From Patescibacteria group bacterium (GTDB lineage: Bacteria > Patescibacteriota > Patescibacteriia > Magasanikbacterales > GWA2-37-8), in NCBI GenBank assembly GCA_028705565.1, contig JAQWDH010000001.1:20363-84362 (forward strand): a stretch of 64,000 nt of DNA, given 5' to 3'. The translations under genes were made by a program, and so were the position numbers. Positions 1-36,892 of this stretch are shown here, one piece after another (positions within the stretch are counted from its first letter, which is position 1; every line of letters starts with the position of its first letter). The notes under the pieces are model-generated. The model was not told the DNA's origin and searched no databases. It saw nothing but the letters and a program-made list of their open reading frames with translations.

Positions 1-10
1 GGATAATTTG

Positions 11-43
11 GACAGAGATCCCTCTCTATGGCTCGGGATGACA
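11..43. repeat. Right half of a MITE-like palindromic element (GGACAGAGATCCCTC...CGGGATGACA) at the window edge; same family as 2709-2802 and 36859-36892
   Basis: Near-identical to the right arm of the 2709-2802 element, read directly. Confidence 0.6.
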
Positions 44-106
44 ATTGTATAATTATCATTTTGACCGAGTGAAATGAGTATGGAAATGACAAAATAAAAC
101 TAGATT

Positions 107-137
107 GCCGCGCTCCCTACGGTCGCTCGCAATGACA
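107..137. repeat. Half-palindrome GCCGCGCTCCCTACGGTCGCTCGCAATGACAA (TTGTCATTGCGAG-type terminus), related to 32135-32176
   Basis: Shares the TGTCATTGCGAG terminus in reverse complement. Confidence 0.45.
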
Positions 138-2708: not shown

Positions 2709-2802
2709 TGTCATCCCGAATGAAATGAGGGATCTCTGTCCGGTTAGTAATATCCCATAATTGCAAATGGGACAGAGATCCCTCATTTCATTCGGGATGA
2801 CA
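2709..2802. repeat. MITE-like nested palindromic element (TGTCATCCCGAATGAAATGAGGGATCTCTGTCC ... GGACAGAGATCCCTCATTTCATTCGGGATGACA)
   Basis: Near-perfect ~33-bp inverted arms with TGTCAT/ATGACA termini separated by a ~27-bp loop; related copies elsewhere in the window. Confidence 0.7.
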
Positions 2803-2887
2803 GTAAATGTATGATTCGCCAAATAGTTAGAATCGTTTGGGCTGTCATTCATATAAAAAATAATTTCATATTATTCCAAATCAATTT

Positions 2888-4111
2888 ATGTTATTTTCGG
2901 ATTTATTTGAAGAAACAATGTTTTCTCTTTCTGCCAACAAGTCGCGTTCCGCGTTGACTATTTTAGGCATTGTTATCGGAATCGGTTCTGTAATTGCAAT
3001 GATTTCTATTGGCCAGGGAGCAACAAAAAATATTACGGATCAAGTGCAGTCGCTTGGCACAAATTTATTGTCAGTAATGCCCGGGAACCAAAAACAATCA
3101 GGAAATATAGTTAAAGGCGGAATGGGTTCGGCGACAAGTTTGACAATGGAAGACTCTGAAGCGATAAAAACATCAATTGCGGAGGCGGTCGCGGTCGCTC
3201 CGACTGTAAGCTCAAGAAAACAGGTGACAGCGAAAGGGACGAATACAAATACAAGTATTTATGGAATTGACGAAAGTTATTTCGGCGTGAAAAACGTTGA
3301 AATTGAAAACGGTTCCAGCATAACTGAACAGCATACAAAATCGCGTTCAAAAGTGGCTGTTCTAGGTCCGACAACGGTAACTGATTTGTTTGGAGAAGGA
3401 TCAAATCCGCTCGGACAAAAAGTTCGCATTGGCAGTCAAGAATTTTCGGTTATTGGCACAACCGTCGCCAAAGGAGGAAGCGGAATGGGGAGTTCTGACG
3501 ATTTGATTTATATTCCGATTACCACGGCTCAACAATATCTTACCGGAAGCGAATCAGTGAGTACTATAAATGTGCAAATATCAGAAGAAAATTTAATGAC
3601 TTTGGCGCAAGAAGAAATCACCGCTTTACTTTTAGAACGGCATAATATCGCCGATTCAACAGCGGCCGATTTCAGCATTATGAATCAAGCTGATATGGTT
3701 GAAACAATGTCTTCGGTGACTGAAACAATGACTTTGCTTTTAGGCGCGATAGCAGGAATTTCTTTACTGGTCGGCGGTATCGGCATTATGAATATGATGC
3801 TTACAACAGTGACCGAGAGAACAAGAGAAATCGGTTTGCGCAAATCATTGGGCGCGAACAGCAAAAATATAACCTTGCAATTTTTAGCTGAATCGGTTTC
3901 CCTTACATTTTTGGGCGGTGTGATAGGTATTGTCTTGGGAAAAGTCGCGGCATGGCTAATAAGCATATTCAGCAGTTTAACAACTGTCGTGAGCTATTCT
4001 TCAATTTTATTGGCTTTTGGAATTTCGGCTTTGATAGGTATAGTGTTCGGATATTATCCGGCAAAACGCGCAGCGAAACTTAACCCGATTGACGCTTTGC
4101 GTTATCAGTAA
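2888..4111 (+). CDS. ABC transporter permease (FtsX/MacB-type, large periplasmic loop)
   Basis: N-terminal TM, ~250-aa periplasmic domain, three C-terminal TMs with the motif TEREIGLRKSLGA typical of the FtsX/MacB permease family. Confidence 0.8.
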   Translation: MLFSDLFEETMFSLSANKSRSALTILGIVIGIGSVIAMISIGQGATKNITDQVQSLGTNLLSVMPGNQKQSGNIVKGGMGSATSLTMEDSEAIKTSIAEAVAVAPTVSSRKQVTAKGTNTNTSIYGIDESYFGVKNVEIENGSSITEQHTKSRSKVAVLGPTTVTDLFGEGSNPLGQKVRIGSQEFSVIGTTVAKGGSGMGSSDDLIYIPITTAQQYLTGSESVSTINVQISEENLMTLAQEEITALLLERHNIADSTAADFSIMNQADMVETMSSVTETMTLLLGAIAGISLLVGGIGIMNMMLTTVTERTREIGLRKSLGANSKNITLQFLAESVSLTFLGGVIGIVLGKVAAWLISIFSSLTTVVSYSSILLAFGISALIGIVFGYYPAKRAAKLNPIDALRYQ

Positions 4112-4133
4112 CGTGATTGTCGCCGAATGTGTT

Positions 4134-4243
4134 TGTCATTCCCGCCCCGTCATCCGACGGGGTAAACTCCAATTATTGTCATTCCCGCGAAAGCGGGAAT
4201 CCATATAATCGAACGATGGATTCCCGCTTTCGCGGGAATGACA
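4134..4243. repeat. Compound MITE-like element: two left arms (TGTCATTCCCGCC..., TGTCATTCCCGCGAAAGCGGGAATCC) and one right arm (GGATTCCCGCTTTCGCGGGAATGACA)
   Basis: Inverted repeats read directly; the 61-aa ORF 4117-4302 is translated from this repeat and is probably not a gene. Confidence 0.7.
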
Positions 4244-4324
4244 GAATGAACGATTTTCGTTATTCGGCGACAGTCCCTTGGTCGGGGTATCGGATTTATT
4301 AATTTATTATTTTATTTTTTCAAT

Positions 4325-4996
4325 ATGCGTAAACAACACCTGTTGACAATTTTACTCGTCGGCATTATGGTCGTTTCCGGTTGTGAAATAAAAAATTCGG
4401 AAACGCAAAAAAATAAAGAGCAAAATAAAAGCGGTGAGACGAATTTGGAAAATCAAATCAACGCGCCTACGAGCACTAATAAAAACGGAAACGGCGTAAA
4501 GGGAACTGATAATGATTTGACTCTCGGGAAAAATGTTATGGTTTTTGGAACATTAAATCAGGATGGAAGCGTGAGCGCGACAAGAATTATGATTGGAAAA
4601 ATTGAGGATTTTAATTTCAGCACGAGCACGCGCAGGGCGCCGGTTGGAGATGGGGCGCAAAACAACGGTTCGCAAACTACTACGCAAGGCATTGAAAACA
4701 GGGGCGAAACACGGACATCCAACAGGCCGAGCGGACAATTTAATCGCAACGGCGGCGGACAAATCGGTCAAAACGGAAAAACAATGGCAGGCGGGCAGGA
4801 AGTTGGCGGAAGTTTTAAAAGCATGACTAATTTTATTGGAGAGATTATTAAAAAAGAAAATAACAGCTTGATTTTGAAATTAAAAGATGGAGGTTCTAAA
4901 ATCGTGTTTTACACCGAGAAGACGGAAATTTTTTTAGTCCAGCCGATGAAGCAATCGGAAACTCCGAATGAACCTCCACCGAGCGAAAACAATTAA
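4325..4996 (+). CDS. Hypothetical lipoprotein, G/N/Q/T-rich low-complexity
   Basis: Signal peptide with lipobox (VVSGC); low-complexity mature region. Confidence 0.45.
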   Translation: MRKQHLLTILLVGIMVVSGCEIKNSETQKNKEQNKSGETNLENQINAPTSTNKNGNGVKGTDNDLTLGKNVMVFGTLNQDGSVSATRIMIGKIEDFNFSTSTRRAPVGDGAQNNGSQTTTQGIENRGETRTSNRPSGQFNRNGGGQIGQNGKTMAGGQEVGGSFKSMTNFIGEIIKKENNSLILKLKDGGSKIVFYTEKTEIFLVQPMKQSETPNEPPPSENN

Positions 4997-5012
4997 AAAG
5001 TTTTAATTAAAA

Positions 5013-5042
5013 TACACCACTTGTTCAGTGGTGTGTTTTTTA
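5013..5042. terminator. Bidirectional rho-independent terminator (ACACCACT-TGTTC-AGTGGTGT + T-tract) between convergent genes
   Basis: Perfect 8-bp stem followed by TTTTTT; A-run on the other side. Confidence 0.6.
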
Positions 5043-5695: not shown

Positions 5696-5830
5696 GTCTG
5701 TTTGTCTGTCAGATGGTCTAGGGTCTACAGTCTATGGTCTGCGGTCAATGGTCTGCGGTCAATGGTCTATGGTCAATAGTCCACTGTCTATAGTCTATAG
5801 TCCATCGTCCAAAATAGTCCATCGTCCAAA
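5696..5830. repeat. Degenerate tandem GTCYAYRG-type repeats (GGTCTATGGTCTGCGGTCAATGG...) between the two tRNAs
   Basis: Read directly; related tracts at 18361-18470 and 36340-36375. Confidence 0.6.
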
Positions 5831-5836
5831 ATACAT

Positions 5837-6197: not shown

Positions 6198-9100
6198 TTA
6201 TCCTCCTTGCGCGGAATTGATTTTTTTCTCAGTCCACGCTTTTGTTTTTATATGAAAAATACCTGTTCCTTTTTTGAGTTTTAGCGGTTTTAAAATTTCT
6301 TCCGCGTATATTTCTTGCAGACGGATAATTGCTTTTTTTGTAAGAGTTCCAAAATATCCGGATATTATTCCTTCGGGATAAATATCTTTGCCCATTGATT
6401 TAAGAAATATTTGCAGATATTTTACATCTTGTCCAACCGCGCCTCTCCACAAAAATCTTTCAAAAGAAAAATTATCCGGAATGCCGAGTGTTGTTTTTAA
6501 AGATGAGGAAACGGTTTGAATCGTTGAAGACGTCAAAATTGTTGAAGAAGCGAGATTGATATCTTTTTCAAGAGTTGACGTGGACAAAGTTGATGTCGTT
6601 GATGTGGCTGAACTTTCCCCGAAAACACCGTAAAGACCGAAATTTTTTGTTTTGGATGTTATTTCATTCGCAAGAGTATTGTCGCTTTTAAGAGGAACCC
6701 ATATTTTTTTTGTTTCGTCCCAACGATAAATTTCCATAGCGTTTTTTTTGATTTTACCGTTCTTTACCAATTCCTCATTGTAAGTAAATGAAAGTTTCAT
6801 TTCGTTGTTAATTTTTTCAATTTCTTTTCCTCCGACAATAGCTTTAATTTCCGAAACAATATCCCCAAGGATATTAAGATTGGTCGGGAGGGGGTGATTT
6901 TTTATAATTTCCATCGGGTCCAAAGTTATAATTTCCAGAACAGCGGTGCCGACAATACTTTGCGGCAGGAATTTTATAACGCCGGTCGCTCCGGATTGAA
7001 ATATTTTTTTCACTTCTCCACCGAGGTTTTCCGTAATGTTGCCAGAACCGGAAGATGATGATGGCGGTATAATGCCTCCACCTCCGCTGATAATCGCGAT
7101 TGTCCATGTTGATGTTGATTGCGTCTTGTTTCCTGCCTTATCCACGGCTTTTACATACCAAGTATGATTGCCGTTTCCGATTTTTGAAGATACGGTTTTT
7201 GAAACGCCGGTAAGATTATCGTCTTTCAAAACATTATCCACATAAAGTTCATAATGGTCAAAATCCGCATCAGACACGGCATTCCATATAAAAGTTGGCT
7301 GTTCATTTCCCAATGTTGAATAATCGCTTGGAGAAGATAATACAAAAGCGGACGGACCTTCGGTGTCTTCGGCCACGGTAAAAGTTTTTGCTGAAAATCC
7401 TCCGTTGTAAGTGAAAGTGATTTTACCGGCGGAGTCGGATTGGTAGGAATTAAAATGAGAACCGTCAACTTTTATTGAATACCATGTATTATTTTTTGAA
7501 ACAGCCACAACATAATCAATCGTGGTCGTGGAAATTGTGCTGGATGCCGTCCATTGGTCGGTATATCCGTTGGAAATGTCGCTGTCATTAAAAGCCAAAG
7601 TGATTTCTCCAATGGAAGGAATAATTTTTATTGTGTTTGTCGCGGCAGTGCCGAGTGTTAAACTTTTTGTGCTGGAAACATTTACAGTAAGAAGATTCGC
7701 CGCTACATTCATCCAATCCCACTCCGAAGTTGGCAAAACATTAAAAGAAGTTGAAAAGCCGCGCGTGGTCAAATCAAAATTTGCGTTGGTGGATGTTGGC
7801 GCGACATTTACAGCGCGAGTGGTGGAAGCGTTGGTTCCGGAAGTGTCACGGAGGTAAACAGTGTATTCATTGCTGCCTTCAGTTAATCCGGAAAATAAAA
7901 TAGACGGATTGCTGTAAACGCTTGCGTTGTAGGAAGCGCGAATCTCATCTTGTGAAAGCGCACGTTTCCAAACTCTTACTTCATCAAGCAAACCCTTGTA
8001 ATAAGCATACGCGTTGGAGCTTGGAACCGCGCCGTTTGTCCATCTGCCTAACTGGCTGTATCCATCATAATAATCGCATATATTTCCGGTTTGACTTACC
8101 GAGTCCTCTAAAATTCCGTTAAAATAAAATTTTATTGTCGTTCCATCGTATGTGACCGCCAAATGATTCCAAGTTGTGGTTGAAATATATGATGTGCTGC
8201 TTACAATCGGCCAGTCGGTGTTGTTCATGCATAATTGCGCCGCGGCTTCGGCGCGTATATCATTTTCGCCCAAGTCGGTGTAATCGGATTTCAAATACAT
8301 TTGGTATTGAGGAAAGTTGGCGATAAATGTGATGTTGTAATCAGAATCCACGGAAGTCGGTTTTATCCACGCTTCCACTGTCAAATCATCTCCTGTCATA
8401 TCAGTGGATGAAGGGCCGGTTAAAGAAACAAAGTCATCAATACCGTCAAAAAGCAAAGCGTTTCCGAATTTTCCTGCCGCCCATTGCGGTAAAGTTGTAT
8501 TCTTATAAATATGAAAACTGTCTCCGGTGGCAAAGCCGGTGAGCGCGGATGCCAAAGTAATGGTTTTATCCGTTTCGCTGGTCGCCGTATAATCGCTGAT
8601 AGTCGTGGTTGAACCATCCGCAGCCCCGGAAGTCGCTTCAAAAATCCAATTGTTATAAAAATCGTTATTTGTGCTGAGAACTATATAAGATGTTTCTTTT
8701 ATAACAGATTCCGTGGTGCCGGCATCGGCAGTGCCGTAATCGCCATAGTCAAATGTTCCTGTATGTCCGGCAATACTATCAGACACGGAAGTTCCGGAAG
8801 TTTCGTCAAATTTCCAATATCCTATCGGTTTGTTATCCCCCCAAGTAATGAACATACTTGAATCACCGGTGGAAGAGATCGTCATATTCAAAAGAGTCCA
8901 ACTTCTGTTGATATATGAACTATTATATTCAGTAGAAGAAGCGAAAGCGATTGACAGGCGAGCCGGCGTGCATAAAGAAGTGTCAACCGATAAACAATCA
9001 TCACGGCATCCGAGCGTTCCGCCCGTGTAGCTATAATCAACGCAAACAGCGTTTCCTGTGTCGTTGTCATCGCACACCTCGCCGGTTTCTTTGACTCCGT

Positions 9101-10862
9101 TTCCGCAATACGCGTCATATTCTGGAGCCGAACCCTCGTCTAAAAAATAGAGAATATAATTTTTCATTTCCGCGCGAATGGTATCCAAATTTTCATTTTT
9201 TAAATCCTTTTCTCTTAATTTACGCACATAATTTTCAGCAGAAACGGTTGATTTTACGCCATCAATTTTTGCTTGGGCGATTAAATTATTTAAAGTGGTT
9301 AAATATTTTACATCATCCACGCCTTCGCGAAATCCTTCCCATTGAACCGTGTCTATAACACCATCCGTTGTCGGGTAAGTAAACGCTCCATCTTTGCGAT
9401 CGACATAATCAAAATCATCCCAAATGTTTCCGTGATATGCTTGATAAGCCCAGTCGGCGGCGCCGTCATAACCGGCCTGCCAAAGCATCAATCCGTAATT
9501 TCTGCGGTATTTTTCAGGTCTTTCCTCGCCGCCTTGAGGGTCTGCGTAAGAATATATTTTATTGCCATAGCTGTGGTATGTTGCCGCAAGATCTGGACGC
9601 AACACGCCATAAACTATCGCTATATCTAAAATATCAGCGGCTCTTTCAGCCATTGAATAATTTGCTTGCGCGTCAATAACTTTTCCGCCGACATCGTGCA
9701 CGGCTTCAATTTGCGCGCGAGTGGTAGTGCTAATTTCCTGCTCATCATACCCGTAACAATAAACATCAACATCTCCGTTAAGAGTCGTAGTCGCGATATT
9801 TATTGTGCTTGTAACCGCGGCTTGCGTTAGCGCGTTGGTGGCATATCCGGCCAAACTGCATCCAACATAAAAAAGCGTAGTAGTGTCCATACCGACTGAA
9901 TTGGCGATTGTAAGCGCGTCGTCAAGACTTCCGTCATTAGGCGCGGCTTGATATTGCGCATAATATAAAGGAGCTGTAATACCATGATTGTATAAATTTT
10001 GCAGCTCAGCGGTGAATTGAGCAGTATTTTTCCAATCTCCTGAAATCTCGCTGTATCCGCTGACATGGAGTCTGCTTGCGTAATAAAAAGAATAAGTTAG
10101 CGACGGCGAGTCCAAAGTAATCGGCAACACCGTAAGATTAAAAGTAAGATTTTTTGTGAAGACATCGGATGTAAGCTGAATTTGTCCGTTGTAAGTCCCG
10201 GCGGTTGTGGTGGTCGGCACTTCCACCGTAATCCAAATTTGTTTATTCGTGTTTGCTGTAATATCAATCGGTTGAAGTTCGGATGTATCTTCAATATGAA
10301 ATTCCGATGGAAGCATGTGCCACTGGTCCGCGACGCCTGAAATGCCGCTTGCGTTGCTTATTAAAACATAGGAGCCGTCCACCAAAGCGTAGTTTTGCGA
10401 ATCTTCAGTTTTAATCAAGTCGTCATTTTTGACAAGCAGTTCCGGCGTCAAATGTTTGTTGGAAACATCATAAAGAGTATATCCTGTTTGATACCAAATT
10501 TTTACAACTCTGATGTCCAAACTGCTTGAGGCAATCGTGCCGTTGTCTCCAATCAAATCAGTTGAAGTGACATTTAAACCTGTAATGGTTTCATTCGCGT
10601 GAATAACAAAAGTTGCGGGTTCAAATTCGCCAGGAGCCGCGCTCATGGTAATCGTGTCGGAAATATATTCGCTTGAAATACTTGAATCAGCGAGTATTTT
10701 TGTGTCCGTTATGGTTGAAGGAACGTAAATTGTCGCTGAACTGGAAGAGGCGAAAATAATATTGTAAAAAAAAGCGGACAAAGGCAAACAGACGATTGAT
10801 ACAAAAAAAATCGATAAAAATCTAAAAATTTTAGAGCGTCTTTTACGTTCTATAAAAATCAT
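6198..10862 (-). CDS. Giant (1554 aa) secreted/cell-surface protein with a glycoside-hydrolase-like region, LamG/concanavalin-like domain, Ig/FN3-like repeats and a C-terminal peptidoglycan-binding (PG_binding_1-like) domain
   Basis: N-terminal TM/signal. LamG-like motif ...GKFGNALLFDGIDDFVSLTG...DDLTVEAWIKP. C-terminal LWRGAVGQDVKYLQIFLKSMG...GYFGTLTKKAIIRLQ matches the PG-binding pattern. Confidence 0.55.
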   Translation of the reverse strand: MIFIERKRRSKIFRFLSIFFVSIVCLPLSAFFYNIIFASSSSATIYVPSTITDTKILADSSISSEYISDTITMSAAPGEFEPATFVIHANETITGLNVTSTDLIGDNGTIASSSLDIRVVKIWYQTGYTLYDVSNKHLTPELLVKNDDLIKTEDSQNYALVDGSYVLISNASGISGVADQWHMLPSEFHIEDTSELQPIDITANTNKQIWITVEVPTTTTAGTYNGQIQLTSDVFTKNLTFNLTVLPITLDSPSLTYSFYYASRLHVSGYSEISGDWKNTAQFTAELQNLYNHGITAPLYYAQYQAAPNDGSLDDALTIANSVGMDTTTLFYVGCSLAGYATNALTQAAVTSTINIATTTLNGDVDVYCYGYDEQEISTTTRAQIEAVHDVGGKVIDAQANYSMAERAADILDIAIVYGVLRPDLAATYHSYGNKIYSYADPQGGEERPEKYRRNYGLMLWQAGYDGAADWAYQAYHGNIWDDFDYVDRKDGAFTYPTTDGVIDTVQWEGFREGVDDVKYLTTLNNLIAQAKIDGVKSTVSAENYVRKLREKDLKNENLDTIRAEMKNYILYFLDEGSAPEYDAYCGNGVKETGEVCDDNDTGNAVCVDYSYTGGTLGCRDDCLSVDTSLCTPARLSIAFASSTEYNSSYINRSWTLLNMTISSTGDSSMFITWGDNKPIGYWKFDETSGTSVSDSIAGHTGTFDYGDYGTADAGTTESVIKETSYIVLSTNNDFYNNWIFEATSGAADGSTTTISDYTATSETDKTITLASALTGFATGDSFHIYKNTTLPQWAAGKFGNALLFDGIDDFVSLTGPSSTDMTGDDLTVEAWIKPTSVDSDYNITFIANFPQYQMYLKSDYTDLGENDIRAEAAAQLCMNNTDWPIVSSTSYISTTTWNHLAVTYDGTTIKFYFNGILEDSVSQTGNICDYYDGYSQLGRWTNGAVPSSNAYAYYKGLLDEVRVWKRALSQDEIRASYNASVYSNPSILFSGLTEGSNEYTVYLRDTSGTNASTTRAVNVAPTSTNANFDLTTRGFSTSFNVLPTSEWDWMNVAANLLTVNVSSTKSLTLGTAATNTIKIIPSIGEITLAFNDSDISNGYTDQWTASSTISTTTIDYVVAVSKNNTWYSIKVDGSHFNSYQSDSAGKITFTYNGGFSAKTFTVAEDTEGPSAFVLSSPSDYSTLGNEQPTFIWNAVSDADFDHYELYVDNVLKDDNLTGVSKTVSSKIGNGNHTWYVKAVDKAGNKTQSTSTWTIAIISGGGGIIPPSSSSGSGNITENLGGEVKKIFQSGATGVIKFLPQSIVGTAVLEIITLDPMEIIKNHPLPTNLNILGDIVSEIKAIVGGKEIEKINNEMKLSFTYNEELVKNGKIKKNAMEIYRWDETKKIWVPLKSDNTLANEITSKTKNFGLYGVFGESSATSTTSTLSTSTLEKDINLASSTILTSSTIQTVSSSLKTTLGIPDNFSFERFLWRGAVGQDVKYLQIFLKSMGKDIYPEGIISGYFGTLTKKAIIRLQEIYAEEILKPLKLKKGTGIFHIKTKAWTEKKINSAQGG

Positions 10863-10877
10863 ACCGATAAATTTTTT

Positions 10878-13431: not shown

Positions 13432-13488
13432 AAAATAAATCCCAAATCCCCTGCCTACCGGTTTACATACCGTAGGTATGCAGGCAGG

Positions 13489-13580
13489 CAATGACCAATG
13501 ACCAATGACCAATGACCAATGACCAATGACCAATGACCAATGACCAATGACCAATGACCAATGACCAATGACCAATGACC
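13489..13580. repeat. Tandem heptanucleotide repeat (CAATGAC/GTCATTG) x ~13 at the 5' end of the flippase gene
   Basis: Read directly; in frame with the flippase ORF as (VIGHWSL)n. Confidence 0.9.
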
Positions 13581-16318: not shown

Positions 16319-16325
16319 AAATAAA

Positions 16326-16362
16326 AACCGCCTTGTTAAATGATAGGGCGGTTTTTTTATTT
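16326..16362. terminator. Rho-independent terminator (AAACCGCC...GGCGGTTT + T-run)
   Basis: 8-bp stem followed by TTTTTTTATTTTT. Confidence 0.6.
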
Positions 16363-18263: not shown

Positions 18264-18330
18264 TGTCATTCCCGTGAAAACGGGAATCTGTTGTCTGATT
18301 GTATGGATTCCCGTTTTCACGGGAATGACA
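18264..18330. repeat. MITE-like element TGTCATTCCCGTGAAAACGGGAATC ... GGATTCCCGTTTTCACGGGAATGACA
   Basis: Perfect ~25-bp inverted arms, each itself palindromic. Confidence 0.7.
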
Positions 18331-18360: not shown

Positions 18361-18470
18361 AACAAAGTCCACTGCTTGTTACGGTCTATGGACTATGGTC
18401 TGCGGACTATGGTCTATGGTCTATAGTCTATGGTCCAACGTCCAACGTCCACAGTCCACGTCCGATTTCC
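18361..18470. repeat. Degenerate GTCYAYGG / GTCCAACGTCCA tandem repeat tract
   Basis: Read directly; same family as 5696-5830. Confidence 0.6.
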
Positions 18471-20753: not shown

Positions 20754-20785
20754 AAGGGGCGGGCAGGATTAGTATGGATCTCTGT

Positions 20786-20851
20786 TGTCATTCCCGCGAA
20801 AGTGGGAATCCATTTGCGATTGTTTGGATCCCCGTTTTCACGGGGATGACA
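20786..20851. repeat. MITE-like element TGTCATTCCCGCGAAAGTGGGAATCC ... GGATCCCCGTTTTCACGGGGATGACA
   Basis: Inverted arms read directly. Confidence 0.65.
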
Positions 20852-20914
20852 ATTGCGATCGTCCGAATCCCGACATGGTCGGAATGGCGACACATTACTT
20901 ATTAATTTCGTTTT

Positions 20915-21894: not shown

Positions 21895-21960
21895 TTCCGC
21901 TTTTAAAGCGGATTTGTTGTTGGGTCAAACAATTCCTTGGGATGGCCTTGTTTGACGCGG
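21895..21960. repeat. Hairpin repeat copy 2, preceded by a CCGCTTTTAAAGCGG hairpin
   Basis: About 65-bp unit shared with copy 3. Confidence 0.7.
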
Positions 21961-22249
21961 TTAAGAACAATGGATGGTTATTATATTAAAGAAAGAGATC
22001 TTTTGATTTTATGCATCCTTTGTTCTATAATATGACGTATTATCTTCTCTGTTATTTTTATATTGTCCATATCAGGAAACGGGGGTGTATGCCCCGCTAT
22101 AATAGACATACAATATAGGTCTATTATAGTATATATAAAATTTTTTTCGTCCTCCTTTTCTTGTGAAAAAAAATTTTTATATTCATTACACTTTTGTTTC
22201 CCCTCCTCCCTGTTTTTTTTGTTATGGTTTTTTCTCATCCTTCCTCTCT

Positions 22250-22320
22250 CTTCCGCTTTTAAATAAAGCGGATTGGTTGTGGGTCAAACAATTCCAGTAT
22301 GGCCTTGTTTGACGCGACAA
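22250..22320. repeat. Hairpin repeat copy 3, preceded by a CCGCTTTTAAATAAAGCGG hairpin
   Basis: Same unit as copy 2. Confidence 0.7.
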
Positions 22321-22593
22321 TAAAATCCCGAATAATATCGGGAGTAACATTTTTAAATTTTCAAAGTTCTTCTGTTTTCGTCCTTTCGGACTCATCAGTC
22401 CAGATACACATCTGGAGAACAGGGGGAAGTTTTTTTAGAGAACTTCCGAAACTCTTTTATTTTTTTGAGGCTCTGCTTCCTCGGGGCTCTCCATTTGCTT
22501 AAGGCGCAAACGGGGACAAAAACCTTTTACCCATATTTTGACGCTGGTGGATTTTCCAGCAACTCACTTATGTGAGGATTGTGCGACTACCGG

Positions 22594-22896
22594 CTAGTCG
22601 ATCAGGTCCCCGACAGTGTACTTGTCACCGTGGGCGATCGCCACGACATACTTTGATAGCTTCGGGTCAAAGCATGCCACCGCCTGGTAGCGGTGTGCCA
22701 GCTTGTGTGCCAGCACCATCGCTACCGGCAGTGAAGCCGGACCATTAATCCGGATCACTTCGCCGCCGAGTTCTCCAAGCTTGGCCATTTCGTCTAGACG
22801 CGCTTCGGCGTCCTTGACGATCTGGTCGTTCTGGGCCGGCGAACCGAACCCGATTTTCAGCGTGCCCTCGGTGAGGACGATGTTGTATGTACTCAT
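22594..22896 (-). CDS. Hypothetical 100-aa protein in a GC-rich islet; tentatively Csx3/Crn3-like (unverified)
   Basis: GC ~55% against a ~45% background. Good RBS (AAGGAGAA). Central motif VIRINGPASLPVAMVLAHKLAH; family assignment is from memory only. Confidence 0.55.
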   Translation of the reverse strand: MSTYNIVLTEGTLKIGFGSPAQNDQIVKDAEARLDEMAKLGELGGEVIRINGPASLPVAMVLAHKLAHRYQAVACFDPKLSKYVVAIAHGDKYTVGDLID

Positions 22897-22975
22897 TGCA
22901 ATTCTCCTTTGCCGTTTTTTTCACCATTAAACGGCATTTTTTATTTTTTTTCACCAGTAGTGGTCTGATAAAATA

Positions 22976-23560
22976 TTATGTTTTTTTGGTAAGCTCGACG
23001 AGAAAACTCGCGAGCACTTTTATTAGCGGTCTTTCGGCAATCTTTTCACCTCTTTCGAGGTGATGAACTGATCCCCGAAGGATTCCGTCTTGGGCAACGC
23101 CCTCAACTTTATCCTCCGTCCCGTGATAATCCGAATGAATCTCGGCAATCACGGTCAGACCACCGACTTTCTTGGCGAATTCGCGCCACTCCGGCATCTT
23201 GCTGGTGTCGCCAGCGAGGATAACCATGTGAGTGGCCCCCGAGCAGATTTTTTCATTTTCAACAGAGGTTATACCTCCAATATCAACGAGCGTCAGCTCG
23301 AGCGAGCACTTCTCGACCGAAGTCTTGATGCGCTCTACAAATTCCGGCGTGAATTTAGCTTTATAGACCGCCTTACACGCCGCCGCGAGTTCCGGATTTT
23401 GGTTCACAGTTTCCTGGAACCAGGCCCCTTCGCCGTCCGGACAAGCCGTGATGACATAGGGGTAGGGGGCTCCGGGGATTGCGCGGATGGCCTGTTTCAG
23501 CCCCTCGCGCATGCAACTCTTACCGGACCTTGGCGGACCGGCGAGAACAACTTTTATCAT
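22976..23560 (-). CDS. P-loop NTPase (194 aa) in a GC-rich islet
   Basis: Walker A LAGPPRSGKS at the N-terminus, Walker B-like hhhhD (HMVILAGD); GC ~52%; operonic with the 100-aa gene. Confidence 0.6.
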   Translation of the reverse strand: MIKVVLAGPPRSGKSCMREGLKQAIRAIPGAPYPYVITACPDGEGAWFQETVNQNPELAAACKAVYKAKFTPEFVERIKTSVEKCSLELTLVDIGGITSVENEKICSGATHMVILAGDTSKMPEWREFAKKVGGLTVIAEIHSDYHGTEDKVEGVAQDGILRGSVHHLERGEKIAERPLIKVLASFLVELTKKT

Positions 23561-23847
23561 TTTTTCTCTCCTTTCCGTTTCGCCATTGGCCGGCGATCGC
23601 CAGAAATCGTATTTTGCGACCTCTCACGAATTGGTTTGTTAATAACCCTCTCGTGATAGGTCGCAGACTTAAATATAAATTTTTCAAAGAACACTCAATT
23701 ATAGCATATTTTGGCGATTTTGTCAAGGGTTTGGTTTGGCTAAAATTAGCCAAAAAGAAAAAACCCACCAAATGCGATGAGTTGAACATTTAGACTGTTT
23801 TGGGCTTAAATGGTTTAGTACAAGCCCAACCATCCGATTTATTTTTG

Positions 23848-24341: not shown

Positions 24342-26138
24342 ATGGCAATGAATGGAAAATTTATCAGAGGATTCGCGTTACTGGAGGTGGTAGTCGCCAC
24401 AGCCGTATTTTTATTGTTCGCGCTCGGTGTCTATGGAGGAACCCAGCTTATATTTAAAATCGTTTATCAATCGCGCATGCGAATTTTGGAAACTTCAATT
24501 TTAAGCGAGGAATTGGAAGTGGTTAGAAACTTAAAATTTGACGAAGTCGGCGTTGTCGGCGGAATACCGGACGGAGTTTTAGAGCATGAAAAAACCGTCA
24601 CGCGCAACAATACGATTTTCAATATTACAACCACGGTTCGCAATATTGACGACCCGTTTGACGGCATCATCGGCGGAACTCCGAATGATACCGCGCCGGC
24701 GGATTATAAATTGGCGGAGATGTCCATAATTTGTTCCAACTGCAATCAGCAAGAGCCGGTGATTTTAAGCACGCTTGTGTCCCCGAAAAATTTTGAAGGT
24801 GAAAGCGACAACGGCGCTCTCTTCGTTCATGTTTTTGATATGAACGGGTTGCCTGTAGTCGGAGCGAACATTCATATAGAAAACACGAACGCTGAGCCGG
24901 ATATTATTATCAATGAAGTGACGGACAATGACGGAATGTTGCGCGTGATAGATACGCCCACCGGCACTTTCAGCTATAATATCACCGTGAGCAAATCCGG
25001 ATATTCAAGCGATTACACAATTTCTCCGACATCGCAAAATCCGTATCCGACCAAATTGCCTTCCACCGTGGCAAGCCAATACATTACTGAAATTAATTTT
25101 TCCATTGATCATACGGGCAATATGCTTGTAAAAACTTTAAGCCCGTCGTGTTCAGCTTTGGCGAGCAAAACTTTCAGCATCTACGGCAATAAAATAATAG
25201 GCGTTGACCCGACAATTTATAAATTTGACGGTTCGCATATTACAGACGGTTCTGGCGAGAAAAATTTTGTCAACATGGAATGGGACCATTATTATTTAAG
25301 CGCGTCCGGCACGGCTTACGACCTCGCCGGTTCAATACCTATGTCGCCGGTACATTTAACTCCCGGTTTAAGCCAAGATGTTTCTTTAATTTTGCGCGCT
25401 CACACAGACAACTCGCTTTTGGTAAAAGTAAAGGATGCCGGAACCGGTCTGCCGCTTTCAGATGTTTTCGCGCGTTTAACAGGAACCGGATATGACGAAA
25501 GTTTATCAACGGATTTGGGTTATACTCGCCAGACAGATTGGTCAGGTGGAGGAGGGCAAAGCGATTTTATAAATGAAAATCAATATTTCATAGACAATGG
25601 AAATTTGGAAACCGATTCTCCGGATGGAGATTTAAAATTAAAAAAAGTAAGCTCGCGGTATTTAACGAGCGGCTGGCTTGAGTCGTCAACTTTTGATTTG
25701 GGAGCCGGCGTTAATTTTCGCAATATAATTTGGGAGCCGCTTGCTCAGCCGGAAGACACGGGAGTCAATTCCATTCTTTTTCAAATCGCGACTGACAACT
25801 CTCCGAATCCGGCATCGTGGGAATTTATCGGTCCGGATGGCGCTTCCACCACTTTCTACACCACGACTTCCACTTTAATTTATAACGGTCATAACGGCAG
25901 AAGGTATATGCGTTACCGAGTTTATTTAAGCACGGAAGACGACAGATACACGCCGATGTTGTCAGAAGCCGCGTTCACTTTTACGAACAATTGCACTCCT
26001 CCGGGTCAAGTTTTTTTCTACGGTTTTTCATCAGGAAATTATAATTTGGAAGTAAGCCGTTCTGGTTACAGTTCAAGCAGCGGACCGTTGGATATTTCCG
26101 GAAATATGGATGTGGTCGTTAATTTATCGCCGAGCTAG
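24342..26138 (+). CDS. Large prepilin-type protein (type IV pilin-like N-terminus)
   Basis: N-terminal class III signal KFIRGFALLEVVVATAVFLL (G/FxLxE cleavage/methylation motif); long beta-rich C-terminal domain. Confidence 0.6.
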   Translation: MAMNGKFIRGFALLEVVVATAVFLLFALGVYGGTQLIFKIVYQSRMRILETSILSEELEVVRNLKFDEVGVVGGIPDGVLEHEKTVTRNNTIFNITTTVRNIDDPFDGIIGGTPNDTAPADYKLAEMSIICSNCNQQEPVILSTLVSPKNFEGESDNGALFVHVFDMNGLPVVGANIHIENTNAEPDIIINEVTDNDGMLRVIDTPTGTFSYNITVSKSGYSSDYTISPTSQNPYPTKLPSTVASQYITEINFSIDHTGNMLVKTLSPSCSALASKTFSIYGNKIIGVDPTIYKFDGSHITDGSGEKNFVNMEWDHYYLSASGTAYDLAGSIPMSPVHLTPGLSQDVSLILRAHTDNSLLVKVKDAGTGLPLSDVFARLTGTGYDESLSTDLGYTRQTDWSGGGGQSDFINENQYFIDNGNLETDSPDGDLKLKKVSSRYLTSGWLESSTFDLGAGVNFRNIIWEPLAQPEDTGVNSILFQIATDNSPNPASWEFIGPDGASTTFYTTTSTLIYNGHNGRRYMRYRVYLSTEDDRYTPMLSEAAFTFTNNCTPPGQVFFYGFSSGNYNLEVSRSGYSSSSGPLDISGNMDVVVNLSPS

Positions 26139-26150
26139 TAGAATAGTATT

Positions 26151-26759
26151 ATGAATTTTGAATTTAATAAAAAAGGTTTTACGATTTTGGAGGCCATCGT
26201 GGCTGTCGCTATTTTCGCTTTGTTGGCGATAGCGATAATATCTCTTTATCTTTTCAGCGATTATTCAAAAAATGTCGTTTGGGAACAATTATCAACTCAA
26301 AATGAAGGCAGAAAAACCGCGCAGGATTTTGGGAACGAATTGCGCACCGCAAAAATTTCCGGCGTTGGAGCGTATCCTTTGGAATCGGCCGCGAGCCAGC
26401 AAATAATTTTTTATTCCGATATTGACGCTGACGGTTTGGCTGAGAGAGTCAGATATTTTAAAGATGCAACAAATTTTAAAAAAGGAGTGATTGAGCCGAG
26501 CGGGTCTCCTATTTCGTACAATCCGGCAAATGAAGCGGTAACAATAATCGCGCATGATGTTGCCAATGGAAGCGACCCTGTTTTTTATTATTATAATGAA
26601 AACTTTAGCGGCTCGGAAGAACCGCTTGCCCAGCCGATCAATGTGACACAAGTGAGAGTGGTAAAAATTTCATTGATTTTGGAAGAAGACCCGAATATGT
26701 CGCCCGTGCCTTTCCGCATTGAAGCGAAAACGATGATTAGAAATTTGAAAGGGAATTAA
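26151..26759 (+). CDS. Prepilin-type N-terminal cleavage/methylation domain protein (minor pilin-like)
   Basis: NKKGFTILEAIVAVAIFALL canonical prepilin motif. Confidence 0.7.
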   Translation: MNFEFNKKGFTILEAIVAVAIFALLAIAIISLYLFSDYSKNVVWEQLSTQNEGRKTAQDFGNELRTAKISGVGAYPLESAASQQIIFYSDIDADGLAERVRYFKDATNFKKGVIEPSGSPISYNPANEAVTIIAHDVANGSDPVFYYYNENFSGSEEPLAQPINVTQVRVVKISLILEEDPNMSPVPFRIEAKTMIRNLKGN

Positions 26760-26765
26760 ATAATT

Positions 26766-28154
26766 ATGTCAATTAGGAAGAAAAATTTTTTTAAATTGTT
26801 TTACGGAGACAAATCCGGCAGCATTTTATTGTTCGCTCTTGTTTTCGGTTCGCTCGCTTTTACTCTTATTGTTGTCGGCGTTTCGGGCTACGCGATTTTT
26901 GAAAATCGCGCTTCAACGCGAAAACATAATCGCGAGATGGCTTTTCAAATCGCCGATGCCGGCATAAATTATTACCGTTGGCATTTGGCGCACGATGACG
27001 ATGACTATCAAGACGGGACAGGGATTTCAGGTCCTTATGTTCATGAATATAAAGATAAAGACGGAAATGTTATCGGACATTTTTCTTTGAATATCACTCC
27101 GCCGGCGAGCGGTTCAACGGTTGTAACCGTGGAATCCACAGGATGGCTGGATACGCAGGTGGAAAGTTTAAGAATAATAAAAGCCAGAATAGGTTTTCCT
27201 TCTTTGACTGATTACGCTTTTTTGACTGACACGGATGTTTGGATAGGAGACACGGAAACAACGCATGGAAAATTTCATTCCAATGGCGGCATTCGTTTTG
27301 ACGGAGTTTGCGACGCGCCAGTCACAAGTATGATGCCGACTTATACTTGCAAAGTATTTCACGGATGCAGTAATCAAACCAGAGACGGGGTTTGGGGCGA
27401 TGGCGAACCGAGCGATTATTGGCAGTTTCCAATGCCAGAGGTTGATTTTGACGCGGTTACCGCCAAACTTGGAGAAATAAAGGAGGCCGCGGATCCTGAC
27501 AACGGCGGAATTTATTTATCTTCATCCGGAAAGCAAGGGTGGCATTTGCAATTTTTGGATAACGGAAAAATAAGCATCAGAAAAGTTAAAACAGCCGATT
27601 GTTATTGGGGCAAGGATATCGGCGACAGCCATCATCATTTATATTGCATAGACGCAAAAACTTTTGATACCGCGACTCTTTATGATATGCCGTCAAACGG
27701 TTATATTTATGTGGAAGACAATGTGTGGGTTGACGGAACAGTGAACGGACGCGCGACCATAGGCACGGCCGAAGGCAAGTCCATAATTATAAATGGCAAT
27801 ATCACTTATCACGCTAAAGATGGTAACCATGTTCTGGGTTTGATAGCCGACCAAAATATTTTAGTTCCATATAATTCCCCGAATGAATTGGAAATTGACG
27901 CGGCGCTTCTCGCTCATAGCGGCGCGGCTAAAAGGTATGATTATCCGGGAAACAAAAAGGATAATTTGTATATTTACGGTTCGGTCATAAGCGCGGGAAT
28001 TTGGACTTGGAGTTGGGCTTCCGCGGCAGGAGTGGTGACATCGGGTTATATAAATACGAACTCCACTTATGATTCCAATCTTTCTTACGGTCCTCCGCCG
28101 GGTTTTCCTGTTGGCAAGCAGTATGTTTTGATAAGTTGGGAAGTGATAAAATGA
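26766..28154 (+). CDS. Pilus-associated protein with PilX-N-like N-terminus
   Basis: N-terminal hydrophobic helix followed by an A..AdAGI motif; third gene of the prepilin operon. Confidence 0.4.
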   Translation: MSIRKKNFFKLFYGDKSGSILLFALVFGSLAFTLIVVGVSGYAIFENRASTRKHNREMAFQIADAGINYYRWHLAHDDDDYQDGTGISGPYVHEYKDKDGNVIGHFSLNITPPASGSTVVTVESTGWLDTQVESLRIIKARIGFPSLTDYAFLTDTDVWIGDTETTHGKFHSNGGIRFDGVCDAPVTSMMPTYTCKVFHGCSNQTRDGVWGDGEPSDYWQFPMPEVDFDAVTAKLGEIKEAADPDNGGIYLSSSGKQGWHLQFLDNGKISIRKVKTADCYWGKDIGDSHHHLYCIDAKTFDTATLYDMPSNGYIYVEDNVWVDGTVNGRATIGTAEGKSIIINGNITYHAKDGNHVLGLIADQNILVPYNSPNELEIDAALLAHSGAAKRYDYPGNKKDNLYIYGSVISAGIWTWSWASAAGVVTSGYINTNSTYDSNLSYGPPPGFPVGKQYVLISWEVIK

Positions 28155-28172
28155 ACAATGGGGTGAAAATTC

Positions 28173-28205
28173 AGAGTTTGCCTTAAATCCGGGTTTTGGT
28201 ATAAT
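28173..28205 (+). promoter_or_regulatory. Candidate sigma70-type promoter with extended -10 (TTGCCT-16-TGGTATAAT)
   Basis: Sequence-only, upstream of galU. Confidence 0.3.
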
Positions 28206-28340
28206 AATATCGTCGTCCAAAAAATTTTTAATTTTTAATTTTTTAAATAAATTTTAATGCTTAAATTTTTAAACCGTTTTTGACATTTTGGTTTTGAGCT
28301 TGATTAAAAATTTGATATTTGAAATTTATTTATATATTGT

Positions 28341-29207
28341 ATGTCTCACATTAAAAAACTCGTTATACCGGTTGCCGGACTTGGCACAAGATTTTTGCCA
28401 GCCACTAAAGCGCAGCCGAAAGAAATGTTGCCGGTCGTGGATAAACCGATTATTCAATATGTCGTTGAAGAAGCGGTACGCGCCGGAATTGAGGATATTA
28501 TTCTTGTCACCGGTCCAAGCAAGCGCGCGGTGGAAGATCATTTCAGTCCGAATTATGAACTTTCAAATTGGCTGAAAAAACAAGGAAAAGACGAAATGGA
28601 AAAAGAAGTCGGCAAAATCGCTGAAATGGCGAATTTTATTTTTATTCGTCAAAAAGGCCCGTATGGCAACGGAACGCCCGTGCTTTGCGCGAAAAATATA
28701 ATCGGAGACGAACCTTTCGCGGTTGTATGGGGAGACGAGTTTTTTTACGCGGAAAAAAAACCGCAACTGAAACAATTGATTGATGTTTTTGAAAAATACG
28801 GCGACCCGGTTTTGACCGCGTATAAGGTGGACAAAGAAGGAACAAAAAAATACGGAATTTTAGACGGCTTGAAAATAGAAAAAGATATTTACCAGGTGAA
28901 AAACATCATAGAAAAACCAGGGCCGGAAAAAGCTCCGTCATTGCTTGCGAGCTTGGGCGGTTATATTTTAACGCCTGATATTTTTGAAGCGTTGGAAAGC
29001 ACAAAGCTTGGAAAAGACAATGAGCTTTGGCTTGTTGACGCGATTTTTAAACTTTTGAAAAAGAGGCCGATTTACGCGCGTTTGATTGATGGAGTTTATT
29101 ACGACACAGGCTCCAAACTCGGCTATCTTAAAGCAAATGTTGATTTCGCGTTGCGCGATAAAAAATTGGCGGAAGATTTTAGAAAATATCTTAAAAGTGT
29201 GATATAA
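28341..29207 (+). CDS. galU: UTP--glucose-1-phosphate uridylyltransferase
   Basis: VIPVAGLGTRFLPATKAQPKEMLPVVDKPIIQYVVEEA matches the GalU N-terminus; typical length. Confidence 0.85.
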   Translation: MSHIKKLVIPVAGLGTRFLPATKAQPKEMLPVVDKPIIQYVVEEAVRAGIEDIILVTGPSKRAVEDHFSPNYELSNWLKKQGKDEMEKEVGKIAEMANFIFIRQKGPYGNGTPVLCAKNIIGDEPFAVVWGDEFFYAEKKPQLKQLIDVFEKYGDPVLTAYKVDKEGTKKYGILDGLKIEKDIYQVKNIIEKPGPEKAPSLLASLGGYILTPDIFEALESTKLGKDNELWLVDAIFKLLKKRPIYARLIDGVYYDTGSKLGYLKANVDFALRDKKLAEDFRKYLKSVI

Positions 29208-29258
29208 TATTAACAGTCAATTTTCAATTCCGCAACGACGATTAAAAAATTTTTAAAT

Positions 29259-30641: not shown

Positions 30642-30672
30642 ATTGTAGGCAGTGGACGGTGGACGGTTGGCG

Positions 30673-30714
30673 ATGAATTATGAATTATGAATTATGAATA
30701 ATGAATTACGAATG
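30673..30714. repeat. Tandem heptanucleotide (ATGAATT) x ~6 spanning the start codon of the first pilin-like gene
   Basis: atgaatt atgaatt atgaatt atgaata atgaatt acgaatg, read directly. Confidence 0.85.
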
Positions 30715-31386
30715 ACAAAAATTTTTACATCAATCGCGGTTGTGTTTCTCGCGAGCGTTTTTTTCACATTTTATTCAGTTCCCGTCGCGCAGGCGGCGAA
30801 TAGGTGTTTTTGTTCCAGTAATTTGGAACAGGCAACCGCGGAAAATTTAACAGGGCATCGTTTTGACGCGACATGCACAACCAATAATTCGGAAGACACA
30901 TGCAACGGACAATCCGAAGCGATATGCGCTCGTCTTGATTTTGATTTTTGTTCCTGTTTGTTAAAAAATACGGATGAAAGTTGCGCGAACAATGTGAGCG
31001 CTTGGCGCGCAAGATATGAAACAATTCAAAGACAAAGCGCCGCGGATGAAAGCGAGGCATCGTCCGGAGGAATTGTCGGGGCGTTTTTGCCGAGATGCGC
31101 CACCGAAGATAATTTGAGCGGCGAATGCAGAAGCGTGGATGTTTTTATAATTTTGGCGATTAACATCGGCCGGTGGCTGTTTTCCATTATCGGCGCTTTG
31201 GCTTTAGGCGCGTTTGTTTTCGGCGGTTTTACTTTGGTGATGTCAAGCGGAAATCCTGAAGAAGTAAAAAAAGGAAAAAACATAATGATTGCCGCTGTAA
31301 CTGGGTTGCTCGTGGCTTTCGGCGCTTATCTTTTAATCAATTTTTTAGGCGATGCTGTTGGCGTAAAAGGGGAGTTTAAATTGTAA
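30694..31386 (+). CDS. VirB2/TrbC-like pilin paralogue 1 with Cys-rich ectodomain
   Basis: Signal peptide, Cys-rich middle region, C-terminal hydrophobic hairpin ...ALGALALGAFVFGGFTLVMSSGNPEEVKKGKNIMIAAVTGLLVAFGAYLL. Confidence 0.5.
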   Translation: MNNELRMTKIFTSIAVVFLASVFFTFYSVPVAQAANRCFCSSNLEQATAENLTGHRFDATCTTNNSEDTCNGQSEAICARLDFDFCSCLLKNTDESCANNVSAWRARYETIQRQSAADESEASSGGIVGAFLPRCATEDNLSGECRSVDVFIILAINIGRWLFSIIGALALGAFVFGGFTLVMSSGNPEEVKKGKNIMIAAVTGLLVAFGAYLLINFLGDAVGVKGEFKL

Positions 31387-31389
31387 TTT

Positions 31390-32109: not shown

Positions 32110-32134
32110 ATGAAATATAAGACGACTTATAAAT

Positions 32135-32176
32135 TGTCATTGCGAGGAGCGAGCGAAGTAAGCGACGAAGCAATCC
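32135..32176. repeat. Half-element TGTCATTGCGAGGAGCGAGCGAAGTAAGCGACGAAGCAATCC of the TGTCAT repeat family
   Basis: Shared TGTCATTGCGAG terminus. Confidence 0.45.
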
Positions 32177-32239
32177 CATGGTTCGGTAGTGCCGGCAATG
32201 TATTTCTGAAACATTAATAGTCGGAATAACAAAAATTTT

Positions 32240-32836: not shown

Positions 32837-32882
32837 GTGATATAATAAACTTGAATTAGAATTCATTTTGGGTTTCACCAAT

Positions 32883-32915
32883 TGTCATTCTGAGCAAAGC
32901 GAAGAATCTCTGTCC
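32883..32915. repeat. Left arm of a MITE-like element (TGTCATTCTGAGCAAAGCGAAGAATCTCTGTCC)
   Basis: Shares the TGTCAT...ATCTCTGTCC structure. Confidence 0.5.
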
Positions 32916-36029: not shown

Positions 36030-36034
36030 AATCG

Positions 36035-36382: not shown

Positions 36383-36396
36383 TGTCATCCCGAATG
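36383..36396. repeat. Fragment of a TGTCATCCCGAATG element, preceded by a GGACTATGG repeat tract (36340-36375)
   Basis: Read directly. Confidence 0.4.
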
Positions 36397-36858: not shown

Positions 36859-36892
36859 GGACAGAGATCCCTCTCTGCCGTTCGGGATGACA
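36859..36892. repeat. Right arm of a MITE-like element (GGACAGAGATCCCTCTCTGCCGTTCGGGATGACA)
   Basis: Matches positions 11-43. Confidence 0.6.

Follow-up and report, generated by a model that had tools for sequence, protein, structure and literature searches.

The 64,000-nucleotide stretch of contig JAQWDH010000001.1 analysed here (the window) carries a family of short palindromic repeats which are very probably Ssn-related hairpin repeats, residing in the chromosome of a bacterium of the Candidate Phyla Radiation (CPR). This host belongs to the Patescibacteria and stands near Magasanikbacteria. G+C content is about 40% in the window, whose RuvB shares 99% identity with the RuvB of an NCBI metagenome-assembled genome (MAG) labelled "Patescibacteria group bacterium", and about 70% with Magasanikbacteria proteins. 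The assignment draws on several lines of evidence, among them the following: the repeats are oriented hairpin units with covarying stems, one subfamily agrees with the published consensus of the class, and in related genomes such units bracket a small GIY-YIG nuclease gene, ssn.

The class was described by Chenal et al. (Nat Commun 2025, PMC11893778). In that work the Neisseria Transformation Sequence (NTS), CGTCATTCCCGCGMAVGCGGGAATCYRG, which contains the older dRS3 repeat ATTCCC-N8-GGGAAT, is bound by SsnA, a 94-amino-acid GIY-YIG protein that cuts beside the NTS in single-stranded DNA (ssDNA) only and in one orientation only. The catalytic residues of Neisseria meningitidis (Nm) SsnA are Y6, Y17 and E64. 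A generalised form of the repeat, the "Ssn-related motif" (SRM), is found beside ssn homologues across many phyla. Since the units of the window are assigned to the Ssn system but their phylum is not treated in PMC11893778, they would represent a new member of the class, with subfamilies that extend the published motif. A literature search for follow-up work found none.

Structure of the hairpin units

Units were defined structurally as TGTC, a perfect 5-bp stem beginning with A[T/C] directly after GTC, a loop of 3-45 nt, and then C. By this definition the window contains 13 intact units, versus 0.46 +/- 0.69 in 200 dinucleotide shuffles (maximum 3), besides at least two degenerate ones, and the string TGTCATYC occurs 17 times versus 3.1 expected. 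All 13 units are intergenic, in a window of which 12.7% is intergenic DNA and 87% genic. Read in one orientation, each consists of TGTC, the stem arm AT-YCY (AT, then Y-C/G-Y), a variable loop or inner stem of 4 to about 45 nt, the arm RGR-AT, and a C that is lengthened to CTCTGTCC in the commonest subfamily. Judged from this plan, the units are oriented modules predicted to form hairpins in ssDNA.

Three types can be distinguished by their internal sequence. A-type units (4177, 4243, 18264, 18330, 20786 and 20851) read TGTCATTCCCG(C/T)GAAA(G/A)(C/T)GGGAATCC, B-type units (43, 2709, 2802, 32883 and 36892) read TGTCATYCYGA-(6-10 nt)-GRRGRATCTCTGTCC, and C-type units (137 and 32135) read TGTCATTGCGAG...GCAATC, with a long and structured loop. 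In four places two units lie inverted and head-out, 8-28 nt apart, to form a doublet; the arms are 100% complementary in two of the four, and as DNA hairpins the doublets have folding z-scores near -12.

The original prediction had listed full and half elements in three internal subfamilies. Every site that it listed was confirmed as a real copy, and the subfamilies are the A, B and C types; its full elements are head-out pairs and its half elements are complete single units, so the copies stood and the division into whole and half did not. The clustering that it saw near tRNA genes and island borders is loosely true, intergenic position being the common denominator. The open reading frame (ORF) at 4117-4302, which it regarded as spurious, exists and is a translation of the repeats, and the peptide strings 'SFPRKRESI' and 'CHSRESGNP' recur in ORFs of this origin. 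The copies are independent, as had been supposed, rather than parts of one duplicated segment: their flanks are mutually unrelated, and short-read contigs of an identical strain break inside units (L122 starts at 20830, L123 spans 2773-4159 and L205 starts at 32902), as expected because the units are dispersed repeats.

The stems of the units show compensatory change. The stem of the unit at 18264 differs from that at 4177 by a compensatory pair (CCCGTG...CACGGG versus CCCGCG...CGCGGG), and the unit at 20786 has the G.T intermediate. Pairing was then scored in 78 distinct units obtained with a genome-scan pattern that fixed only purine/pyrimidine classes on the stem arms; since this pattern did not demand pairing, the test is not circular. 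The two variable stem positions were Watson-Crick in 77/78 and 76/78 units (Fisher 2e-21 and 3e-16), with four stem variants, and the hairpin structure of the units is under selection. The covariation indicates that selection acts on structure and not on a sequence bound by a transposase. The T before GTC and the C after the stem were demanded by the finder, and their invariance in 591 distinct units is by construction. Substitutions between strains were uninformative as a test of stem selection, the doublets and their flanks being identical in a sister strain (L206, L207, L002 and L004) that is 96-97% identical to the window.

These properties bear on the kind of element involved. Classical miniature inverted-repeat transposable elements (MITEs) are deletion derivatives of insertion sequences (IS) with a DDE transposase, moved by cut-and-paste in trans via their terminal inverted repeats (TIRs), and it was as MITE-like, non-autonomous mobile elements that the repeats had been presented. 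The doublets do measure 66-94 nt and end in perfect or near-perfect TIRs (TGTCAT...ATGACA), and presence differs between strains. Target-site duplications, which had been proposed as a check, were found at none of the four doublets, where just 2-4 nt AT-rich matches occur at shifted offsets; the window contains no IS, and no transposase was found among 50 window ORFs scanned against Pfam. The common single units are complete oriented hairpins, which TIR-based transposition leaves unexplained, their stems covary, and the supposed termini are two opposed hairpin units. We therefore regard a MITE origin in the usual sense as scarcely credible. The alternative wording of the original prediction, structured repeats like repetitive extragenic palindromes (REPs), was right in spirit, the repeats being multi-copy and intergenic with covarying stems and strain differences.

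An action at the RNA level, as terminators or attenuators, mRNA-stabilising hairpins or small RNAs, is suggested by the fact that all copies are intergenic, many of them just after genes, and that the doublets are also very stable as RNA hairpins. This explanation is highly unlikely. The units have no T-tails, one arm (18268-18287) being weakly terminator-like, whereas the real terminators of the genome show extended runs of T (16323-16356 and 5009-5039 are examples). Two of the doublets fall within apparent operons, from an ABC-ATPase gene to MacB and from nrdD to nrdG, where a terminator would be harmful, and units occur in both orientations relative to neighbouring genes. An Rfam search at the gathering threshold returned rRNA and tRNA only, and a permissive search added generic microRNA-precursor long hairpins below threshold. 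A secondary effect of the units on transcripts is possible. Searching for an outward promoter at the unit terminus ATGACA gave a single sigma-70-like match (18269-18240), whose -10 box overlaps the ruvB start codon.

Agreement with the published motif and association with ssn

The A-type units at 4177 and 4243 are identical to the NTS consensus at 26/28 positions, and the published SRM pattern, HGTCWYN(0-2)YYVSBRHN(0-5)WNVSBRGN(0-2)RNCYNB, matches four units of the window versus 0.05 expected in shuffles. By this published sequence criterion the A-type units are NTS/SRM members. B- and C-type units have leader, stem base and trailing C in common with them, and it is units of these types that flank ssn on either side in this lineage.

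Relatives of the nuclease were collected with a ~95-amino-acid GIY-YIG consensus that was validated by its matches, which number at least 8000, each with PF01541 as its sole domain. The Ssn relatives are 93-115 amino acids long, have PF01541 only, and align with invariant Y, Y, R, E/H and E residues; in P0116, from a Daviesbacteria MAG, Y5, Y16 and E63 are spaced as Y6, Y17 and E64 of Nm SsnA. Further candidates (P0123, P0124 and P0142) come from other Patescibacteria. NCBIfam has no model specific to the Ssn family. Across many phyla the ~95-amino-acid protein keeps an identity of 75-84%, suggesting that horizontal transfer is frequent.

When 185,579 species genomes were scanned for the B-type pattern, at least 116 stretches of 8 kb each were obtained. 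Among the 116 matches listed are many Patescibacteria and also members of other phyla. The copies are thus not restricted to the window, as had been anticipated, and units and nuclease gene alike are common in Patescibacteria relatives, so that the surprise expressed at finding such elements in a reduced genome was misplaced. Eight of the 116 listed stretches, all fetched by the unit pattern alone, encode an Ssn-like protein, tightly bracketed by units.

The association was measured in 80 independent metagenome loci chosen by protein similarity to the Ssn of locus L089, 71 of them with both flanks. Units lie within 120 nt on both sides of ssn in 48/71 loci. They are arranged head-out, with 55 upstream units on the plus and 10 on the minus strand, and 61 downstream units on the minus and 10 on the plus strand. 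Unit density is 7.1/kb beside ssn versus 0.27/kb more than 500 nt away, a 26-fold enrichment. In relatives, ssn and the units are tightly associated in head-out arrangement.

Unit-ssn-unit cassettes were also read individually in five CPR genomes: L005 (Daviesbacteria), L089, L090, L124 and L211. In L089 and L124, where pilin genes 74% identical to those of the window adjoin an ssn gene coding for 98 amino acids, the order is TGTCAT...CTCTGTCC - ssn - GGACAGAG...ATGACA. The cassette occupies a pilin gap in L124; in L211 its neighbours are a methyltransferase gene and GAPDH, and in L239 they are fmt and wzy. Positions 32883-32914 of the window recur unchanged as a unit that flanks the ssn of L129. 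In L090 a second small GIY-YIG gene (4582-4818), of another subfamily that is UPF0213/YhbQ-like in look, adjoins the ssn cassette and is followed by TGTCATCCCAAACGG sequence.

The pilin cluster of the window allows a direct comparison of one site. It consists of eight tandem or nearby paralogues of the type IV secretion system (T4SS) pilin family PF18895, at 30694-34938 and 36485-36826, with units in three of the gaps, and the relatives L114 and L124 share this expanded cluster. L124 is collinear with window positions 24450-40380 and holds B+ - ssn - B- between the orthologues of pilin genes 32240-32836 and 32977-33360. The corresponding gap of the window is occupied by the solo unit 32883-32915, which agrees in type and orientation with the 5' unit of the L124 cassette. 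In L114, the closest genome-collection relative among the matches listed (83% amino acid identity, adjacent NTP-transferase), the same gap contains B+ [A+ A-] B-, and the MAG of L114 encodes ssn at another place, likewise bracketed by units. Unit 32883 occupies a former or alternative site of the ssn cassette. Several assemblies among these relatives (for example CAYIHE01, CAZBWU01 and CAZQSS01, within L006-L121) are labelled 'uncultured Gammaproteobacteria bacterium'; the labels look wrong, and the genomes are evidently Patescibacteria, because L114 is syntenic with the window and L089 has CPR-type pilin genes.

A vehicle for the units was also sought among viral contigs, which contained no B-type units and 23 Ssn relatives. 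Phages as carriers of the units are therefore unsupported.

The intergenic clusters, the short imperfect palindromes, the inverted doublets with a short spacer and the lack of target-site duplications would also suit REP elements moved by a RAYT, an IS200/IS605-like tyrosine transposase, the doublets being REPINs and the singles REPs; a parallel between the Ssn repeats and REP/REPIN-RAYT is drawn in the Discussion of PMC11893778. When the window and 215 unit-rich related loci (1.29 Mb) were searched for a Y1 transposase by tblastn with IS200 TnpA and E. coli RAYT queries, no match was obtained at E <= 0.001, the lone match being 38 amino acids long (E = 0.008). This negative is a soft one. What the unit-pattern loci do contain, in the eight of 116 mentioned above, is an Ssn-like gene tightly bracketed by units, and the leader of the units is TGTC, not the GTAG-type tetranucleotide of classical REPs. 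A RAYT-driven family is accordingly very improbable here.

Evidence weighing against the assignment

Several observations weigh against assigning the repeats of the window to the Ssn system. No ssn gene, intact or decayed, was found in the 64-kb window with a GIY-YIG motif regular expression, Pfam on 50 ORFs or tblastn with 120 Ssn proteins. Not one B-type (...GRATCTCTGTCC) or C-type (ATTGC...GCAAT) unit of the window fits the published SRM pattern, and in the 71 CPR-type ssn loci that pattern finds flanking on both sides in 4, versus 48 with the structural definition. All four doublets are unchanged in position and sequence in the sister strain. It follows that the cognate enzyme may be absent from the genome, and that the elements could be largely fossil. 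A tblastn match to Ssn at 28033-28167 (E about 0.07-0.1) was rejected as a junk translation overlapping the 3' end of a real gene.

Since the B and C types fail the published pattern, their membership of the class rests on the association with ssn and on the shared leader and stem base. The dominant subfamilies of the window escape the pattern, so censuses relying on it give too low a count for the system. As to the missing gene, 19% of the SRM-rich genomes of PMC11893778 are likewise without a detectable Ssn homologue.

The sister strain differs from the window at the pilin locus, where L002/L004 have an extra full doublet beside 36892 and an extra unit upstream of the pilin start codon. The insertion polymorphism that had been suggested as a check therefore exists, alongside four unchanged doublets, and gain or loss must occur, but slowly.

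If the repeats had no current function, they would be drifting leftovers of once-active ssn cassettes. Besides the lack of ssn in 64 kb and the constancy of the doublets between the 96-97% identical strains, truncated or nested copies (4134-4170, 36383-36396 and 20861-20892) and a solo unit where a relative has the cassette are in keeping with such decay. Thirteen units nevertheless have intact stems, two of the four doublets have arms that are 100% complementary, the sister strain differs by the gain or loss of a doublet and a unit, and the closest relatives keep an intact ssn. A purely fossil family is thus unlikely, and Ssn-related hairpin repeats remain the preferred reading.

Proposed mechanism, origin and significance

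By analogy with Neisseria SsnA, a single-domain GIY-YIG Ssn protein of ~95 amino acids would bind the unit hairpin only in ssDNA and nick a few bases 5' of the TGTCAT leader, so that each unit would be a strand- and orientation-specific ssDNA cleavage site. The targets may be DNA entering by transformation or conjugation, or DNA exposed in replication, and recombination would be shaped at the flanked genes, here notably pilin paralogues. Units that bracket a gene, as at pilin gene 36485-36826, would shorten the homology open to incoming single strands and so modulate recombination. With no ssn in the window, we therefore only infer that the units are cut in this genome, by an Ssn encoded elsewhere in it, from the Neisseria and Wolbachia enzymes of PMC11893778.

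It is most likely that the units derive from unit-ssn-unit cassettes, in which case the doublets would be a cassette minus its gene and the solo units remnants. A stronger form of this idea holds that the cassette is an autonomous selfish mobile element driven by its GIY-YIG single-strand nuclease, with doublets and solo units as non-autonomous derivatives, the true 'MITEs' of a GIY-YIG element. It is consistent with the presence of the cassette at unrelated loci (L124, L211 and L239), with one orthologous gap that holds ssn, a nested doublet or a solo unit in three genomes, and with the gain or loss of a doublet in the sister strain, the nesting of units and the 75-84% identity of Ssn across phyla. 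We consider it a tentative proposal, with the odds against it.

CPR genomes are about 1 Mb in size and usually thought repeat-poor, and CPR bacteria are believed to rely on DNA uptake and cell-cell contact. The assignment would extend the Ssn/SRM system, a nuclease specific for ssDNA together with its genomic hairpin sites, to this radiation. The repeats gather near pilin paralogues; in Neisseria, NTS are likewise concentrated at surface and virulence genes. Given an active enzyme, the units would mark cut sites in incoming or replicating ssDNA, and hence where recombination is shaped. In practical terms, the repeats break short-read CPR assemblies and yield spurious ORFs, and the CPR enzymes with their B- and C-type sites would widen the range of specificities in a nuclease family that is of interest for ssDNA tools.

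Individual units of the window

At the left end of the window there are two single units on the minus strand that fit the structural definition, a B-type unit at 10..43 (TGTCATCCCGAGCCATAGAGAGGGATCTCTGTCC as read on the minus strand) and a C-type unit at 103..137 (TGTCATTGCGAGCGACCGTAGGGAGCGCGGCAATC) with a long structured loop. The B-type head-out doublet 2709..2802, between the ABC-ATPase and MacB-permease genes, consists of identical units at 2709-2741 (plus strand) and 2770-2802 (minus strand) with a 28-nt spacer. Its 43-nt arms are 91% complementary (z = -11.9), and its layout is that of the unit-ssn-unit cassette of relatives minus the gene. A nested composite follows at 4115..4275, in which an outer 14-nt inverted repeat (4115-4128 / 4262-4275) surrounds a 3'-truncated long-loop unit on the plus strand (4134-4170) and the A-type head-out doublet that agrees with the NTS consensus (4177-4204 plus, 4216-4243 minus).

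The divergent intergenic region of ruvB and nrdD contains an A-type head-out doublet (18264-18291 plus, 18303-18330 minus; z = -12.2). Between nrdD and nrdG there is another, with diverged arms (20786-20813 plus, with one G.T stem mismatch, and 20824-20851 minus). Directly before it, at 20777-20785, is a B-type trailer remnant, GGATCTCTGT, and beside it, at 20861..20892 on the minus strand, a tentative degenerate unit was recognised by eye, with the leader TGTCGCC for TGTCAT and the stem ATTCCGAC/TCGGGATT.

The remaining units belong to the pilin cluster. A single C-type unit on the plus strand (32135..32178, TGTCATTGCGAGGAGCGAGCGAAGTAAGCGACGAAGCAATCC) lies between two T4SS-pilin paralogues, and the single B-type unit 32883..32915, also on the plus strand, reads TGTCATTCTGAGCAAAGCGAAGAATCTCTGTCC. 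Pilin gene 36485-36826 is bracketed head-out by a truncated unit, or stump, upstream (36383..36396, plus strand, TGTCATCCCGAATG...) and by a single B-type unit downstream (36859..36892, minus strand).

Other repeats and islands

Tandem arrays of 7-nt repeats occupy intergenic positions at 5713-5833, 13489-13580, 18383-18463, 30652-30713, 36353-36371 and 36897-36913. The heptamers include GGTCTAT, GTCCAAC, CAATGAC, ATGAATT and CGTCCAC; several arrays adjoin hairpin units, and one separates two tRNA genes. In the CAATGAC and ...GAATGACA arrays the repeated heptamer is the terminal 7 nt of unit types. Array length changes in steps of whole heptamers between the 96-97% identical strains (+21 nt, -14 nt, and 13 versus 3 copies of CAATGAC). 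Heptamer arrays are also present in L002 (1047-1345) and, outside the ssn cassette, in L089 and L124. As a general companion of the units they were rejected, since in other genomes a strict detector found them at 4/684 units; they seem to be specific to this lineage.

The 23S rRNA gene (46342-50806) is 4465 nt long versus a model of 2925 positions, with about 1.5 kb of insertions. These include a LAGLIDADG homing-endonuclease ORF (49641-50252) and five hairpin-shaped insertions of AT-rich heptamer arrays at about 46490-46590, 47130-47240, 47880-48055, 48550-48700 and 48817-48960. The last two share 96% identity and start with ...GCGGAATGACCAAT, resembling a unit terminus. A perfect 117-nt tandem duplication (1.8 copies; 50865-51078 / 51025-51131) runs across the 23S-5S spacer into the 5' portion of the 5S rRNA gene, so that a truncated 5' fragment of 5S precedes the intact 5S gene. 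A second, unrelated palindrome family, CCTGCCTACCGGTTTACATACCGTAGGTATGCAGGCAGG, occurs at 13450-13488 and 57534-57572 (97% complementary). At the first site the sister strain carries CCTGCCTACCGGCAGGCAGG, which is shorter, and one of the 23S insertions contains a similar short form at 47921-47936.

Two strain-specific islands of the window are absent from sister-strain locus L206. The first, 6210-10871, contains an ORF of 1554 amino acids (6198-10862); the second, 21958-23681 (1.7 kb), contains a Csx3-like ORF (22594-22896), with 40-nt repeats at 21686, 21920 and 22277. A Fic/DOC-family gene (57619-58530) lies between 142-nt direct repeats that are 94% identical (57320-57461 / 58865-59006), an arrangement that may be a cassette, either duplicated or mobile. 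L090 ends, near the ssn of that genome, with a Fic fragment that is 79% identical.

Comparison with known systems

Correia elements (Correia repeat enclosed elements, CREE), the MITEs of Neisseria, resemble the window family: at about 100-150 bp they too are small, palindromic and intergenic, have terminal inverted repeats, give rise to spurious ORFs and act on neighbouring genes. They have 26-bp TIRs and a TA target duplication, whereas the doublets of the window have no duplication and their 'TIRs' are independent hairpin units that are also found singly.

The REP, bacterial interspersed mosaic element (BIME) and REPIN sequences of E. coli and Pseudomonas are likewise intergenic palindromes with inverted doublets and no target-site duplication. 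In the REP/RAYT system, as in the Ssn class, a dedicated gene for a small nuclease lies between copies of the repeats, which are recognised as ssDNA hairpins. The enzyme of the class to which the window units are assigned is, however, a GIY-YIG nuclease and not of the HUH/Y1 type, and the leader differs.

The closest likeness is to the NTS/SRM repeats themselves. The window units share with them the oriented leader (C/T)GTCAT, the hairpin core and the C directly after the palindrome. Both are almost wholly intergenic and clustered, with unit-gene-unit bracketing, and in relatives of this bacterium, as in the published class, the nuclease gene is itself bracketed by repeats. The window family differs in having no ssn gene within the window, in its Patescibacteria host, from a group absent from PMC11893778, in the prominence of head-out doublets, and in that most copies belong to subfamilies outside the published pattern, with an inner segment of at least 11 nt and the extended CTCTGTCC trailer.

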